In this document: piece by piece, positions 33,480 to 51,016 of the stretch
Position numbering within the stretch: position 1 is the stretch's first letter
How the letters are laid out: each line of letters starts with the position of its first letter
Assembly: GCA_949841595.1 (NCBI GenBank)
Contig: CATKZB010000005.1
Coordinates: 2,178-66,177 of the forward strand
Reading direction: 5' to 3'
DNA length: 64,000 nt
Source: an uncultured Christensenella sp.
GTDB taxonomy: Bacteria; Bacillota; Clostridia; Christensenellales; UBA1242
Made by a program: the position numbers and the translations under genes
The notes under the pieces: generated by a model
What the model was told of the DNA's origin: nothing
Seen by the model: the letters and a program-made list of their open reading frames with translations, nothing else
The model's database searches: none

Positions 33480-33733
33480 ATTTCTCCTTACTTTATTAAT
33501 AATGATTTCCACTTTTATTTAATTATATATCTTTTTATAAGTTTAGCACATTTGTTGTTTTTGTTAAAGCGAAAATTGAAAATTTTTCAACTTATCAGAC
33601 TATGGGCTCTTTTAATTACACAAAACAAGGTAAAATCTTAAATTTCACTGATTTATTTTTAAATATTGGATTTATCTTTTTAAAGTTTGGAAATTCTAGC
33701 ATTTTTTCTCACAAATTTTGGAATTAGAGTTTA

Positions 33734-33786
33734 TTCGACAAGTTCTGATTTATCGCGACAAAATTACCAATTTTTTTATTTCGTCA
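33734..33786 (+). promoter_or_regulatory. cluster of Spo0A-box (0A box, TGNCGAA) motifs upstream of the spo0A-like gene
   Basis: TTCGACA at 33734-33740 is the reverse complement of TGTCGAA. TTCGTCA at 33780-33786 is the reverse complement of TGACGAA. A degenerate TCGCGACA lies at 33753-33760. All three are in the same orientation, 67-119 nt upstream of the ATG. Confidence 0.45.
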
Positions 33787-33852
33787 TTTTGTTATTATGT
33801 GGTATCTTTATCATGTTTTTGCAAGAATACAAAATTTAAAGGAGTAAAAATC

Positions 33853-34602
33853 ATGGAAAACATTATAGAAAACAATATGCCGAAAATTTATTTCGCAGAC
33901 AACACAGAAGAAAATTCAGTTATGGAATATTTTAAAAAGAGTGAAAATTTCAACTTTGTGGGAGCAAGCTCTGACGGGCTTAAAGTTGTCAAAGATGTTG
34001 AAGCTTTGAAACCCGATGTTTTGGTTATGGAAGTTATGCTTTCAAATCTTGATGGATTTGCAGTTTTGGACAAAGTGAAAGAACTTAAGGATATGATGCC
34101 AAAAGTGTTTTTCATTTCAAATTTGTCACACAGTGGTTTTGTGACAAAGGCAATTCAGTCAGGAGCAAGTTATTTTATGGTTAAACCTGTTTCTCCAGAA
34201 AACTTGGAAAACAGAATTTTTGAAGTTTTAAACAACGGTAAAAGCAAGGATGGAAACAAACAACTTGATGAAAAGATTTCAAATATTTTTATCAGCATTG
34301 GCATCCCTGCGCATATAAAAGGTTATCAGTTCCTTCGTGAAGCTGTGAAGCTGGCAGTTGAAGAGCCTGAAATCATTGGTTCTATCACCAAAAAACTTTA
34401 TCCAACGATTGCCGAAAGGTTTGAAACAAGCTCAAGCAAAGTTGAAAGAGGTATGCGTCATGCCATTGAAGTTGCGTGGAACAGAGGAAAAATTGAAAAT
34501 ATAAACAATATTTTCGGATTAAAGATATATAATAGAAATGAGAAGCCTACAAACGGCGAACTTATCGCTTTGATTGCAGACAAAATGATTATGGACGGCT
34601 GA
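33853..34602 (+). CDS. spo0A: Spo0A-family response regulator with an atypical receiver domain (Glu at the phospho-acceptor position)
   Basis: The C-terminal domain closely matches the Spo0A DNA-binding domain: GIPAHIKGYQFLREAV, GSITKKLYP.IA..F.TSSSKVERGMRHAIEVAWNRG, KPTNGELIALIADK. In the receiver, PDVLVMEVMLSNLDG aligns with PDVLVLDIIMPHLDG of B. subtilis. ATG at 33853 has an AAAGGAG SD, and the ORF-track start at 33718 is rejected. Confidence 0.85.
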   Translation: MENIIENNMPKIYFADNTEENSVMEYFKKSENFNFVGASSDGLKVVKDVEALKPDVLVMEVMLSNLDGFAVLDKVKELKDMMPKVFFISNLSHSGFVTKAIQSGASYFMVKPVSPENLENRIFEVLNNGKSKDGNKQLDEKISNIFISIGIPAHIKGYQFLREAVKLAVEEPEIIGSITKKLYPTIAERFETSSSKVERGMRHAIEVAWNRGKIENINNIFGLKIYNRNEKPTNGELIALIADKMIMDG

Positions 34603-34712: not shown

Positions 34713-36332
34713 ATGTCTAGAACACTCTCAAAAATTTTAGTTACGTGTGCTATGATAGCTGTTTTCCCACTTATTATTGTTGGGACAGCATTTGCAGCTT
34801 ATTTCTCTATAGACGCAAGTGTAAATGTAGGTGTTTACACAAATCAATTGTCACCTGCTGTTGATGCATATGCACAAGTGCTCTATAATGGAAAGGCTAA
34901 TTCTGACAAAATTCTTATCAAACAAGGACACACAAACACAATAGAACTTAAAGCAACTGCAAAAGGTTATGATTTCAAAGGCTGGTTTGCTGGAGATAAA
35001 GAATCATATGCAGCTGCTCATCAAGCAGGCACTGTTAAATTTGCAATGGAAGACGATGTTGTTACTGTTGGCATGACAGACTATCAAAAACTTTTGGCAG
35101 TTTTTGAAATTCAGGAAAATGAAGTTTCATATGCTTATAAAGCGACTCCAGATGCAACAGAAAACACATTGACTACTCCAGAAACAGATGATAGTGATGC
35201 CACAACAAAAATTTATTATTATGGAGAAAATCTTCCAATTTTGGTTGCTCCAACAGCTCAATATTCATTTGGTGGTTGGAAAGTGGTTGGAGATGAAACA
35301 AACACTATCTATACTCAAGCAACATTCTCTGGTTTGAAAGACATTACTTTGGAAGCAGTTTGGAATGAAAATCTTGAAATTAAAGTGAACTATTATAATA
35401 ACAAAAATGACGAAGAGCCTCTTTGGATAGAAACTGACATTGTTTACCAAAATCAAGAATACACATTGAAAAAATTGGAAAACTTTAAACCTGATTTTGC
35501 AAAAGAAGCTGGCTATGCATATAGCTGGGTTGATGGAGAAGGTAATGCAATTACAAAAATAATCTCAAAAGAAGATGTTAATGTCTATCTTGCTAAAACA
35601 GCCATCAATTATAGTGCAGCATTAACAATAAATGAAAGTGATGAGGCATTTATCAGCACAAACGTTGCTACAGATGTAAACTTTACAGCAGAAAATATGA
35701 GTGCTTTGGAAGCATGGTTTAATGTTGAAAATTGGAATATAAAATATTCATTCCATAAATTTATAGGAATAAAAGTAGGTGAAACAACTTATACAGATTT
35801 CGACACTTTTAAAACTGTTGCAGAAAACTTGATCAACGCAAACCCAGATGGACCAAAAGATAATAAAATATCTGCAGAAGTTGTATTAGAGAAGAATTTC
35901 ACAAAAGTTGAAGTTACTGAAAAAGTTTCTTACAAACTTGCTCATGCTCAAAATCCTAACATTGCAATTGACAACATTTACACAGAAGCTGGATCAGTTA
36001 AAGATGAAATTACTGGCGAAAATGAAGTTAATTCAATAGACAATATTTTGGAATTGATTCATATGGATGAAAATTCTAAATTCTATGATGCAGATAAAAA
36101 TGCAGAAACACGTAATCCTGTTGAATTGTCAAGAGTAAGAGTCACAATCAACGGAACTCAAAAAGTTTACAGAGTTTCTGCAAATATGACAGTTAATGAT
36201 TTGATTGAATTGATTGTGCAAGATTATACCCTTGATGGCGTTGATATTTTGACAATTTCAACAGTTGAGGTTATCTTCAACAGAACTGCTGTTGAAACAG
36301 AAACTCCAACAGAACCTGATTTTGTAATCTAA
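34713..36332 (+). CDS. membrane-anchored surface protein with Listeria-Bacteroides-type repeats
   Basis: The N-terminal hydrophobic anchor is ILVTCAMIAVFPLIIVGTAFAAYF. Flg_new-like motifs are KGYDFKGWF, YSFGGWKV and GYAYSWVDG. An AGGAGG SD is present. Confidence 0.6.
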   Translation: MSRTLSKILVTCAMIAVFPLIIVGTAFAAYFSIDASVNVGVYTNQLSPAVDAYAQVLYNGKANSDKILIKQGHTNTIELKATAKGYDFKGWFAGDKESYAAAHQAGTVKFAMEDDVVTVGMTDYQKLLAVFEIQENEVSYAYKATPDATENTLTTPETDDSDATTKIYYYGENLPILVAPTAQYSFGGWKVVGDETNTIYTQATFSGLKDITLEAVWNENLEIKVNYYNNKNDEEPLWIETDIVYQNQEYTLKKLENFKPDFAKEAGYAYSWVDGEGNAITKIISKEDVNVYLAKTAINYSAALTINESDEAFISTNVATDVNFTAENMSALEAWFNVENWNIKYSFHKFIGIKVGETTYTDFDTFKTVAENLINANPDGPKDNKISAEVVLEKNFTKVEVTEKVSYKLAHAQNPNIAIDNIYTEAGSVKDEITGENEVNSIDNILELIHMDENSKFYDADKNAETRNPVELSRVRVTINGTQKVYRVSANMTVNDLIELIVQDYTLDGVDILTISTVEVIFNRTAVETETPTEPDFVI

Positions 36333-46403: not shown

Positions 46404-47150
46404 ATGAGTGATGCAGCAACAGATATGGAAAAAGAAATAAAACATGAGAGACTATGTAGAGAAAATCTTAATAAATGGTCTATCGATAAACCTTTATTTG
46501 AAAGGGGTACAAAGGAATATAAAAAACATCTTGAACAAATTTTTTATGCAGCAAGTGATCTTCAATATAATTACACAATGTCGTATAAAATGGTTGTAAA
46601 TTTGGTAACGAGATATCCAGAACTTTATGATTTTAAATATGAACCTGGTTTTAAAGTAACGCCTGACAATATTTTTGATTGTATTAATGAAAAATCTAGA
46701 GATGCCAAAAATTTGGAAATTATAAAAAATGTTATTAAAAATAACTTAAAAAATTTGCAAAATATAACCGAAGCAGTGGAAAGATTGGAATATTGTGCAA
46801 ATGTATTGGAAGTAAAAAACTTAACAGAAACGAAAAGAAATAAATTGTGCAAACAAATCTATAAAGATGTCAAATTTCTTACAGATGATTGCTATTTATA
46901 TGTAAATGTTGATAATGTTGAGAAGATTTGTAACAAATTGCCAGAACTATATTATAGAACTAAGTCAACTTTTGGATTGTTGCAATGTGTGGATGTAAAC
47001 CACATCTATGATATAAATTATATTTATCAAAATAATATTAAAAACTCTCAAGAAAGATTGAAGAAAAAATTTGGATCTCACAAAAAATACATGAAACCTG
47101 ATGCAACCACTAAACAATCAGAAAAACGCAATGTTTCAAAAGCCTTTTAG
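46404..47150 (+). CDS. hypothetical cytoplasmic protein (no recognisable domain)
   Basis: Strong promoter and AAGGAGG SD. 248 aa, Lys/Asn-rich, with no TM segment. Confidence 0.6.
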   Translation: MSDAATDMEKEIKHERLCRENLNKWSIDKPLFERGTKEYKKHLEQIFYAASDLQYNYTMSYKMVVNLVTRYPELYDFKYEPGFKVTPDNIFDCINEKSRDAKNLEIIKNVIKNNLKNLQNITEAVERLEYCANVLEVKNLTETKRNKLCKQIYKDVKFLTDDCYLYVNVDNVEKICNKLPELYYRTKSTFGLLQCVDVNHIYDINYIYQNNIKNSQERLKKKFGSHKKYMKPDATTKQSEKRNVSKAF

Positions 47151-47756: not shown

Positions 47757-47894
47757 TTTGTTTCTCCTTTAAGTGTGTTTTATTATAGTATACTTCCAAA
47801 AATTATGCAAATAAAATTACTTAAAAAATTTGTAATTTTTATTTGGTAATTATTTCCTAATGTGTTATATTAGAATTAGCTTAAGGGAGGTTTT

Positions 47895-49949
47895 ATGAAA
47901 AATAAAATTTGGGCAATTTTAGTGGCTGCACTTGTGGTTGTTGGAATTGTCTTAGGTATTGTTTTGCCAAGCGTTTTGAAAAAAGACGAAGGCACAGAGG
48001 CAAACTATAACATTATTTTTGCCAACTCATCAATTCCACCAACATTGGCAGCAATGGATTCTATCCTTGCAGGTGGAGAGTCTTATGCCTATATTCAAAG
48101 AGGAAAGACTTATTCAGGAATTGCTCAAACAGCAGGATTTACAAATTCTGGTTTTGATGTAAAAGTAAACGGCGATGGAAAAGACAACGTTTTGTCACCT
48201 GCACAAGTTCAAGATTTTGCAAATTTGGTGAAAAGACTTAAGACAGAAAACAAAAAGGCTAAATTTACAATTTATGTAACTGACTTTGATGCTTATGCCG
48301 GATTTGCTATCGGAATTTATGGTGGGCTTTCAGACAGTGATTTTAAGGTTGTTATGATTGAAGATGGTTATTCAACATATGCAAACTTCAGAAACTATTT
48401 TGTCAATGGCAAAAATGTGACTGGGGGGGGTGCTGACGAGCCTTTTGAAGCTTTTAAAGCTCTTCTTGATGATTCTGTTGAAAAAATTAACAACATGAAA
48501 CGCGATGCAGCAGGTGCTTTGCCAGGCCAAGATTTGATGTTCCATAGTCCATATGCTGTTTATGCACTTGCAACACTCAGCAATGCTGAATATCGTGTTC
48601 AAAATAAAAATACTCTTTTAAATGATTTAAACAGCGTAGCTTCTTCAAGATTGAACACTATATATAAAGGAGAAGATTCAGAATATAAAATTAACATCAA
48701 ATCTTCTTCAATAAGTGAAACAATGGGGAAATTTAATGCAGAACAAAAAGAAAAATATCTTACATTGACACTTGGTGATTTTAGAACAGAAGCAACAAAT
48801 ATGTTGACAAGAACTGTTGACGGAAATGAAAATGAAGTTTCTTCAAAAAAATTAGTTTATATCGGTTCTCGTGCATATGGTTATGATTATGCATTGGTTG
48901 AAGATTTGACTGAAGCAAATTACTCAACATATATCGTTGAATATTCAGTTCTTCAAACTTTGGCTGAAGGTGGAGACGCTTTTGCAACATTCTTGACAAG
49001 TGAATATACAGAAAGCGATTGGGCTTCATTCGTAGCTTTGATGCCATCAACTTATAATGTTGCATATACTGCTGCGTTTAATAAATTCCAAGAATATAGA
49101 TATGCTTTCTCTTGGGTTCTTTCACTTTATGGTGGCACTGAAGAAGGGAAATATGACATCCTATATAAAGGACATCCATCAGAACTTGTTGACACAAAAT
49201 CCACTTTCCAAGAAAAGCATTATAAAGTGGATGGGGTTCCTTTCAATGAAGAAATGTATACAATGGTAAATCATTTCCATTTTAGTGATTCAGTAGGAAA
49301 GAGAATTGGAGTTCTTCCTGGTGGAGTTGCTGTTGAAAACTTTGCATATTTGGGACTTGATTTCTCAATTTGTGGGCTTGATAGTTCTTCTTATAAAGGT
49401 TATGAACCTTCAGTTCCTGTTGAATTTGTTATTGGTGGTGGAAACTATAATGTTTTCAGTACAAATCTTGTAGGTAGATATATTGCTGGAAACTTGCTTG
49501 ATAGTGCCGAAGAACAAACTTTGATTTTGAATAAAGGAAACCTTTTAAAACTTCTTGGCCGTGAAACTGAATACAAAAATTGGGTTAAAGCAACATTCGG
49601 AATTACAGAAAATGTTGACAATTACACTCTTGACAGAAGAGGATTGTTGGCTTATTCAGATGAATATGTTGCAGCAAACAGCCTTGAAAATAATGTAATC
49701 AAGAGAAACGTTGTGTTTGGCCATATGGAAAGTGAAAGCTTTGTTGCTGACAAAACAGTTGAAAATGTTGCAAACGGGACTCAACTTTCTGCAATTGTTT
49801 CAGAATTTGCAGGTACAGTTCCAGAAGGAAAAGTATTTGCTGGCTGGGCATATGAAGGTCAAACAACAGTTTGGAACAGTTATTTCAACACTGTTGAAGG
49901 TGAAATAAGAATGGTTCCAGTTTTCACTAACGTTACTACAGAAGCTTAA
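47895..49949 (+). CDS. membrane-anchored protein with bacterial sialyltransferase-like (GT80-like) motifs and a C-terminal Listeria-Bacteroides-type repeat
   Basis: N-terminal TM helix (IWAILVAALVVVGIVLGIVLP). The D/E-D/E-G motif is VVMIEDGYSTY and the HP motif is ILYKGHPSE. The downstream DSSSY aligns, from my memory of Pasteurella PmST1, with LYDDGSMEY / YFKGHPRGG / GVASSLY. Also SSIPPTLAAMD vs ASLPALNQLMD and KYLTLTLGDF vs FYLTLVGF. The C-terminus has KVFAGWAYEG. A GGGAGG SD is present. Confidence 0.5.
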   Translation: MKNKIWAILVAALVVVGIVLGIVLPSVLKKDEGTEANYNIIFANSSIPPTLAAMDSILAGGESYAYIQRGKTYSGIAQTAGFTNSGFDVKVNGDGKDNVLSPAQVQDFANLVKRLKTENKKAKFTIYVTDFDAYAGFAIGIYGGLSDSDFKVVMIEDGYSTYANFRNYFVNGKNVTGGGADEPFEAFKALLDDSVEKINNMKRDAAGALPGQDLMFHSPYAVYALATLSNAEYRVQNKNTLLNDLNSVASSRLNTIYKGEDSEYKINIKSSSISETMGKFNAEQKEKYLTLTLGDFRTEATNMLTRTVDGNENEVSSKKLVYIGSRAYGYDYALVEDLTEANYSTYIVEYSVLQTLAEGGDAFATFLTSEYTESDWASFVALMPSTYNVAYTAAFNKFQEYRYAFSWVLSLYGGTEEGKYDILYKGHPSELVDTKSTFQEKHYKVDGVPFNEEMYTMVNHFHFSDSVGKRIGVLPGGVAVENFAYLGLDFSICGLDSSSYKGYEPSVPVEFVIGGGNYNVFSTNLVGRYIAGNLLDSAEEQTLILNKGNLLKLLGRETEYKNWVKATFGITENVDNYTLDRRGLLAYSDEYVAANSLENNVIKRNVVFGHMESESFVADKTVENVANGTQLSAIVSEFAGTVPEGKVFAGWAYEGQTTVWNSYFNTVEGEIRMVPVFTNVTTEA
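48423..48430 (+). repeat. G8 homopolymeric tract inside the sialyltransferase-like ORF
   Basis: ctGGGGGGGGtg, read directly from the sequence. It encodes T-G-G-G at about codon 177 of the ORF. Confidence 0.95.
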
Positions 49950-50987: not shown

Positions 50988-51016
50988 AAAACATCTGCAA
51001 CTTGCAGATGTTTTTT
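50988..51016. terminator. bidirectional terminator
   Basis: aaaacatctgcaa / cttgcagatgtttt, between convergent genes. Confidence 0.8.

Follow-up and report, generated by a model that had tools for sequence, protein, structure and literature searches.

A putative phase-variable operon for a surface-anchored, sialyltransferase-like GT-B enzyme in a small-genome gut bacterium of the Clostridia

The DNA analysed here is a stretch of 64,000 nucleotides (nt), referred to below as the window, from an uncultured Christensenella sp. (assembly GCA_949841595.1, contig CATKZB010000005.1, positions 2,178 to 66,177 of the forward strand). The open reading frame (ORF) at 47895..49949 (+), with all positions counted over the whole window, encodes a 684-residue protein, P0001, which is a genuine but distant relative of the sialyltransferases of the glycosyltransferase (GT) families GT80 and GT38, closest to GT80. 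We assign a probability of about one half to the reading that P0001 and the membrane protein encoded directly behind it form a phase-variable operon in which the enzyme, facing outwards, puts a sialic-acid-like sugar on the surface of its own cell. The ORF is as it was given in a preliminary description made from the same DNA, and the single N-terminal hydrophobic helix reported there was found as well. The coordinates of the features are collected in Table 1.

Scans of P0001 itself against Pfam and NCBIfam, and with phmmer against the PDB, returned nothing relevant, and neither PF11477 (GT80) nor PF07388 (GT38) matched it at E<=1. Among the family members PF11477 reached at best 23.1 bits against a cut-off of 25 bits, and PF07388 matched 7 of 43 members, all below its threshold (best 22.1 bits vs 23.3). 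A profile of 17 sequences matched only the C-terminal B-repeat described below, and the profile of 43 family sequences was required to reach GT80. With this profile GT80 structures were matched at E values from 8e-7 to 1e-2, including those of the P. dagmatis enzyme (8e-7), Pasteurella multocida PmST1 (~1e-4) and Photobacterium ST0160 (6e-3), in an alignment that covers the linker helix, the KGHP motif and the Ser-Ser block. The comparison of the 43-sequence alignment with PmST1 by hhalign (the PmST1 sequence used being a 100% match to 2ex0_A) gave a probability of 97.1% and an E value of 5.3e-11 for residues 275-508 of P0001 and 228-366 of PmST1. It pairs H427 with His311, the general acid of PmST1, E481 with Glu338 and S497-S498 with Ser355-Ser356, and HMMER pairs these residues identically. 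His311, Glu338 and Ser355/Ser356 are named in the literature as catalytic residues of PmST1 (PMC4202792).

The EDG, KGHPSE and Ser-rich motifs to which the preliminary description had drawn attention lie where it placed them (IEDGY at residues 155-159, KGHPSE at 425-430, DSSSY at 496-500, with VENFAY at 480-485) and are not chance strings, being kept across 43 homologues down to ~20% identity. E156 is present in 40 of these, D157 and G158 in 41 each and Y162 in 42; K425 is kept in 42, H427 and P428 in 41 each; E481 is found as Glu or Asp in 39, S497 in 39 and S498 in 40. The alignments with PmST1 given in the preliminary description fared unequally: KYLTLTLGD/FYLTLVGF and VLPGGVAVENFAYLG/NIPANISFEVLMMTG were reproduced by both HMMER and hhalign, NIIFANSSIPP/ITLYLDPASLP by no tool.

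The AlphaFold2 (AF2) model of P0001 calculated from the family alignment (predicted local distance difference test score, pLDDT, 86.3; predicted template modelling score, pTM, 0.79) is composed of the two Rossmann domains of a GT-B enzyme. Its best Foldseek match in the PDB is 2zwi, the GT80 alpha-2,3-sialyltransferase of Photobacterium (E 5.7e-10, probability 1.0, template modelling (TM) score 0.61 on the target); the matches ranking next are GT-B enzymes of a generic kind. The C-terminal Rossmann domain contains a helical insert specific to the P0001 family at about residues 330-415. In the N-terminal domain the top hhalign alignment lays VVMIEDGYSTY on LNLYDDGSMEY of PmST1 and D157 on Asp141, with an E value of 0.026 and a probability of 1.9%, which is insignificant alone, and a profile of this domain only found no match in the PDB. 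The arrangement E156-D157-G158-x3-Y162 is shaped like D140-D141-G142-x3-Y146 of PmST1, and D157 is proposed as the equivalent of the catalytic base Asp141, an assignment that fits by motif and fold only.

The GT80-like identity suggested in the preliminary description stands as to the homology, the GT-B fold and the aligned HP histidine, ribose-binding glutamate and serine pair; it does not stand as a match to the PF11477 model. Since P0001 falls below the Pfam thresholds for both GT80 and GT38, it probably represents a separate, unannotated sister family. With the GT80 enzymes (PmST1/PM0188, 2EX0; P. dagmatis PdST, 4V39; Photobacterium phosphoreum alpha-2,3-sialyltransferase, 2ZWI; PF11477) it has in common the GT-B fold, a [DE]DGxxxY motif of like shape and, collinear with it, the linker helix (Q)xxYLxL, KGHP, ribose-binding Glu and Ser-Ser, and an N-terminal membrane anchor or signal in front of the catalytic domain. 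In contrast to them, it is only ~12% identical, its N-domain is not recognisably similar in sequence, and it carries the ~80-residue helical insert in the C-domain as well as a C-terminal extension of ~100 residues with the B-repeat. Its family belongs to gut Firmicutes and not to Pasteurellaceae/Vibrionaceae; moreover, P0001 is predicted to be displayed outside a Gram-positive-type cell, and the carrier genomes are without a pathway for sialic acid activated with cytidine monophosphate (CMP). The GT38 polysialyltransferases (PF07388; Neisseria meningitidis, E. coli K1) share with it the D/E-D/E-G and HP motifs defined by Freiberger et al. 2007, as cited in PMC7439481 and PMC4202792. They differ in being cytoplasmic capsule polymerases encoded in neu/kps clusters, and all matches of the family to them are sub-cut-off. 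Because the N-terminal acceptor domain is not significantly similar to GT80 in sequence, sugar and acceptor specificity cannot be deduced from the likeness.

Leloir-type glycosyltransferases are expected in the cytoplasm, where nucleotide sugars are made. The location of P0001 is most probably different. A lipoprotein signal with a lipobox cysteine is present in about 26 of the 43 family members at the position of the P0001 helix, and some of these proteins continue into collagen-like or Ser/Thr-rich stalks. The cysteine is missing from P0001 and its two closest relatives, which carry uncleaved signal-anchors and so do not qualify as lipoproteins; in P0001, Lys2 and Lys4 lie on the N side of the single N-terminal hydrophobic helix. 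About 9 of the 43 members are without any signal. At the other end of the protein AF2 predicts a small beta domain with strands at residues 603-679, and the 17-sequence profile matches structures of InlB B-repeats there (E 3e-4, profile positions 605-661). Pfam gives no Listeria-Bacteroides repeat on P0001 itself at E<=1, PF09479 is carried by several of its homologues, and the same region of the profile also matches many large surface proteins of the carrier genomes; the presence of this C-terminal repeat, as it had been proposed, is thus borne out by the family. Because of the lipoboxes of the homologues, the signal-anchor and the B-repeat, the catalytic domain of P0001 is placed, as far as can be predicted, outside the membrane and not in the cytoplasm, a location that the preliminary description had considered. 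An ordinary supply of CMP-sugar would not be expected for an extracytoplasmic domain.

Neither a CMP-sugar synthetase (PF02348) nor NeuB (PF03102) was found in the window or in the whole genome (1.13 Mb, 97.9% complete), which agrees with the earlier statement that the window holds no neuA or neuB and extends it to the genome. NanE-type sialic acid catabolism was detected neither in this genome nor in the 7 closest carriers. In the 38 other carrier genomes the PF02348 matches are marginal and partial (19-33 bits), as expected of other nucleotidyltransferases, and a CMP-ulosonic acid synthetase appears to be lacking across all 39 carrier genomes, with no convincing candidate. The sialic-acid-like decoration proposed before retains the sialyltransferase homology as its basis and lacks a CMP-nonulosonic acid pathway in the genome search; as no CMP-ulosonic acid synthetase, NeuB or NanE is present in the genome, its sialyl-specific part is unproven.

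The gene of the membrane partner starts 15 nt past the stop codon of the enzyme gene with no terminator between them, and a terminator-like hairpin follows it, in agreement with the co-transcription of the two genes suggested in the first place. The partner matches nothing in Pfam or NCBIfam. Its AF2 model is all-helical (pLDDT 74) and has no match in the PDB (best E 1.7); a word search returned only 6 homologues. Partner homologues, down to 24-25% identity, stand directly 3' of the enzyme gene at four loci (L002, L003, L004 and L056) whose other neighbours are entirely different, and the partner is likewise found directly downstream in 7 of 38 carrier genomes. These 7 genomes measure 0.8-1.2 Mb, and the enzyme they encode is in each case of the closest subfamily. 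This linkage is observed directly, and we infer from it a functional partnership of the enzyme and the nine-helix protein. The conserved motifs of the partner (SKDKK, KxKxTRNxGxG and KTKNWLGxxD) fall on predicted cytoplasmic loops. A search by hhalign for a divergent partner beside the distant lipoprotein-type members was negative, and the convergent downstream genes of these members are mutually unrelated (an RHS-repeat protein, a Na/H exchanger, an AAA ATPase). The operon with its orphan nine-helix partner, conserved in the small-genome subfamily, is new here.

The operon is, judging from its sequence, also a likely phase-variable contingency locus, which had been missed at the first reading, as had the standing of the partner as a conserved orphan family. 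The run of eight G in the enzyme gene is the only G run of at least 7 nt in the window and on the window alone is within chance. It is the genome-wide tract count that makes it significant: there are 29 runs of G or C with a length of 8-9 nt in the genome vs ~1 expected, the 6-nt runs are depleted (5 vs ~31 expected), and the length distribution is bimodal. At least 10 of the tracts are situated in a stereotyped promoter, TTGACAAAnn-C8/9-GTGnTAnAAT, and about 14 are intragenic; the genes bearing tracts include those of BspA-LRR, B-repeat and MBG surface proteins, an Acyl_transf_3 and a GT2. Examples of tracts in the genome are C3:85290-85298, C3:86935-86943, C2:112835-112842, C16:3272-3280 and C1:241442-241449.

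The alleles computed for a change of one nucleotide yield products of 200 residues (G7) and 180 residues (G9), both ending before the CMP-binding domain. The computed G7 product is matched end to end, including its 22-residue out-of-frame tail and the stop, by P0025. This orthologue, 65% identical and found in a different assembly, is thus a natural OFF allele frameshifted at the same position. Five independent orthologous loci (L003, L007, L009, L004 and L038) have a single G tract of at least 8 nt within ~14 kb, of the length G9-10, and it is situated in the promoter spacer of the operon, directly after the -35 hexamer TTGAC(T/A). By count the spacers are 19-20 nt long in all five, above the optimum of 17 nt, so that these operons may, in their consensus state, be OFF or low. 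According to the alignment of the upstream regions, the promoter-like site in the window has no homopolymer tract, unlike the promoters of the orthologues. The position of the tracts in an ORF or a promoter, the truncation by a change of one nucleotide and the genome-wide excess together point to a contingency locus.

The enzyme family is rare. A word search found 17 homologues, and the family accounts for 74 representative clusters among 1.84 billion. The scan of species-representative genomes gave 38 loci, all of them in metagenome-assembled genomes of uncultured gut or rumen Firmicutes, with deer, sheep, goat, mouse and human as hosts. In the genus of the window, which has genomes of 0.7-1.3 Mb, the gene occurs in 2 of 25 species (one copy fragmented), and it was found in 0 of the 16 other families of the order; it is a patchy accessory gene. 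The signal-less member P0057 ends a GT4-GT2-GT2-Wzm-Wzt glycan cluster and adjoins a NeuB homologue (230 bits; L052 9760-12643), an adjacency that links the enzyme family with the chemistry of nonulosonic acids. Of the other signal-less members, two (L047 and L060) adjoin an alanine racemase and CotH spore-coat kinases. These neighbourhoods hint that spores or capsules are decorated with nonulosonic acids. A systematic survey of the signal-less subgroup in metagenome contigs yielded only two contigs of 3 kb, and individual look-ups yielded mostly short ones. One distant lipoprotein-type member sits after a priming-transferase/GT4 cluster.

From the homology, the fold, the residue conservation and the export signals across the family we infer an enzymatic function, and the transfer of a CMP-linked ulosonic acid is the reaction that best suits the conserved pocket. 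The first gene encodes a GT-B enzyme of a GT80/GT38 sister family, predicted to be membrane-tethered and outward-facing, and the second the nine-helix membrane protein that always accompanies it in the small-genome subfamily. Expression would be switched by slipped-strand mispairing, here in the G8 run of codons 177-179, where a slip of one nucleotide in either direction would remove the whole CMP-binding domain, and in the orthologues in the G9-10 run of the promoter spacer. On the cell surface the enzyme would transfer a nonulosonic-acid-type sugar to the cell's own surface glycans or proteins and so produce a variable coat. The cell has no means of making CMP-activated ulosonic acids itself, so the donor would need to come from outside as exogenous CMP-sugar, or it would arise in a CMP-dependent reverse (trans-sialidase) reaction on existing sialosides; trans-sialidase and sialidase side activities are documented for GT80 enzymes (PMC4202792). 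A more specific version, which is speculative and in our opinion rather unlikely, is an extracellular sialyl (nonulosonyl) exchange enzyme for which traces of CMP would serve as a recycled cofactor and which would move sialic-acid-type sugars from host mucins or neighbouring microbes onto the bacterium's coat, with the partner supplying the acceptor or the nucleotide and the poly-G tract as the switch. It would be a bacterial analogue of the trans-sialidase strategy of trypanosomes, reached from a Leloir enzyme.

Several points weigh against surface transfer of a sialic-acid-like sugar. To our knowledge no activated sugar donor exists on the outside of Gram-positive cells, and CMP-sialic acid is a labile compound. 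P0001 remains below the Pfam thresholds for GT80 and GT38, its N-terminal acceptor domain is without significant sequence similarity to GT80, and the partner is without a recognisable function. The association with NeuB is that of one contig and of a different, cytoplasmic subgroup, and the distant lipoprotein-type members are without the partner and are sometimes located near glycoside hydrolases (rhamnosidase, amylase). Furthermore, the one classical precedent for such an enzyme at the surface, gonococcal Lst, was later assigned to the cytoplasm (PMC8092323). We have dropped it as such a precedent and keep it only for its dependence on an exogenous donor: Lst of Neisseria gonorrhoeae (GT52) uses exogenous host CMP-Neu5Ac, and the organism cannot make CMP-sialic acid (PMC4668040, PMC8092323). 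P0001 would resemble Lst as a sialyltransferase with an external donor in a cell that does not make CMP-sialic acid; it differs in belonging to another GT family and in having explicit export and anchor signals, Lst being now regarded as cytoplasmic.

It is possible, although somewhat unlikely, that the donor is made by the cell itself and is not a CMP-ulosonic acid at all, being a lipid-phosphate sugar or another cytidine-linked compound which the partner exports or presents. In that case the operon would stand for a new type of system that modifies wall or teichoic-type polymers outside the cytoplasm, by glycosylation or by phospho-transfer, and its sugar would be unlike sialic acid. Such a donor would account for the strict linkage of the partner to the enzyme in the small-genome subfamily and for the charged motifs on the predicted cytoplasmic loops of the partner, which fit the handling of a cytoplasmic ligand. 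The lack of a CMP-ulosonic acid pathway in the genome, the N-terminal acceptor domain unlike GT80 in sequence and the GT4 and priming-transferase genes near some family members are in line with it too. However, the conserved ribose-binding Glu and Ser-Ser argue for a nucleotide-linked and not a lipid-linked donor, and the enzyme can evidently work alone, as most lipoprotein-type members have no partner. The partner is also unlike any flippase or transporter described so far, and the best fold match is to GT80, not to TagF-type or GT-C enzymes. In Firmicutes, extracytoplasmic glycosylation of teichoic acids is carried out by the CsbB/GtcA/YfhO systems with GT-C enzymes and undecaprenyl-phosphate sugars. 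The operon is similar to them in the decoration of surface polymers with sugars at the outer face and in having a polytopic membrane component; in contrast to them, its outer enzyme is of the GT-B type with a CMP pocket, and its partner is unrelated to GtcA or YfhO.

The near-invariance of the Asp, the His and the CMP ligands in the 43 members suggests that full transferase chemistry is under selection. This makes it quite unlikely that P0001, instead of modifying the surface of its own cell, is an adhesin or hydrolase displayed there and derived from a sialyltransferase scaffold, with the role of binding or cleaving sialoglycans of the host or of scavenging nucleotides for a metabolically reduced bacterium. 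The surface display, the B-repeat and the stalks of the homologues would suit such a protein, as would the tiny genome and the phase variation itself, since adhesins are often phase-variable; a hydrolase would also agree with the rhamnosidase and amylase genes beside some distant members and with the sialidase side activity of GT80 (PMC4202792). The released sialic acid would, however, be unused by the canonical route, as NanE is absent from the genome and from the 7 closest carriers. A misread topology, with the domain in the cytoplasm and P0001 as an ordinary membrane-associated Leloir glycosyltransferase, would be in accord with the normal location of nucleotide-sugar enzymes and with the existence of the signal-less subgroup. 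It is extremely improbable in view of the unambiguous lipoboxes at the same position in close and distant homologues, the positive residues N-terminal to the helix and a C-terminal B-repeat of a type known from extracellular proteins; besides, the donor pathway would still be missing from the genome.

Poly-G/C contingency loci that switch surface-glycan transferases are known from Campylobacter jejuni, Neisseria and Haemophilus. The present genome is similar in having G/C tracts of 8-10 nt in ORFs and promoter spacers of surface genes, about 29 of them in a small AT-rich genome. It differs in being that of uncultured reduced-genome Clostridia, in the many tracts located in the stereotyped TTGACA-poly-C-TGnTAnAAT promoter, and in that the tracts are known here from assembled sequence. 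The set amounts to a Campylobacter-like contingency-locus repertoire in 1.13-Mb uncultured Clostridia, and the phase-variable design, together with ~29 putative poly-G/C switches on surface genes in a 1.1-Mb genome, suggests that this uncultured lineage is under strong pressure from immunity or phages.

The family is of interest as an unannotated branch of the sialyltransferase superfamily which has kept the catalytic residues and is, by prediction, displayed on the outside of Gram-positive-type gut bacteria in which pathways for the synthesis, activation and breakdown of sialic-acid-like sugars are all missing. An active enzyme would imply either that donors are available externally in the gut, as CMP-sugars of host or microbial origin or through CMP-catalysed trans-sialylation, or that a new type of donor is used. 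Either outcome would change the view of surface glycan mimicry in commensals and might provide new biocatalysts.

Table 1. Features of the enzyme-partner operon (window positions; residue numbers refer to P0001 unless stated otherwise).
Feature	Position	Strand	Basis or remark
Promoter-like TTGGTA-17 nt-TATATT with TG extension	47843..47871	+	Consensus scan
Shine-Dalgarno AAGGGAGG	47883..47890	+	4 nt 5' of ATG; direct sequence reading
Gene of sialyltransferase-like GT-B enzyme, predicted surface-anchored, GT80/GT38 superfamily	47895..49949	+	ORF, AF2, Foldseek, hhalign
N-terminal signal-anchor helix, about residues 5-27	47907..47975	+	Hydropathy; AF2 helix 3-19
D/E-D/E-G motif, E156-D157-G158	48360..48368	+	Kept in 40-41 of 43 homologues
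G8 homopolymer, codons 177-179 (Gly-Gly-Gly)	48423..48430	+	Candidate slipped-strand switch, ON as assembled
Putative CMP-binding C-terminal Rossmann domain, residues 275-508	48717..49418	+	hhalign to PmST1 228-366; AF2 secondary structure
HP motif, K425-G-H427-P428-S-E	49167..49184	+	HMMER and hhalign alignment
E481, counterpart of PmST1 Glu338 (CMP ribose ligand)	49335..49337	+	HMMER, hhalign
S497-S498, counterparts of PmST1 Ser355/Ser356 (phosphate ligands)	49383..49388	+	HMMER, hhalign
InlB-type B-repeat (Listeria-Bacteroides repeat), C-terminal, beta-rich surface module	49701..49931	+	Family profile, AF2
Orphan polytopic membrane partner, 338 residues, about 9 helices	49965..50981	+	No Pfam/NCBIfam match; AF2
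Intrinsic terminator-like hairpin, 12-bp stem, closing the two-gene operon	50988..51014	+	Sequence scan

A 171-residue protein of another assembly, P0021, is 96% identical to P0001 over residues 1-130 and continues abruptly with unrelated sequence after ...FTIYVTD; a rearrangement or insertion within the gene may lie behind the break, or else a junction of the assembly. When an empty site was sought in another genome of the same genus (L061 of genome G039), ppa was found there and synteny was conserved on neither side. The distance between tmk and ppa is ~1.5 kb in that genome vs 16 kb in the window, and so strong a difference in ppa/tmk gene order between species indicates extensive rearrangement in the small genomes of the genus.

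Upstream of the operon, 46404-47150 (+) encodes a 248-residue protein, located 5' of the divergent ppa and probably unrelated to the operon. It was considered as a cytidylyltransferase and rejected, since the PF01467 match is sub-threshold (E 0.022, 15 bits vs 21) and the signature is absent. Another surface protein with B-repeats (Flg_new / Flg_new_2), of 539 residues, is encoded at 34713-36332 (+), just 3' of spo0A (33718-34602). A giant ORF of at least 9,947 residues, 3-29846 (+), whose product the preliminary description had put forward as a possible target of the decoration, runs off the 5' end of the window and lies 18 kb upstream of the enzyme gene.

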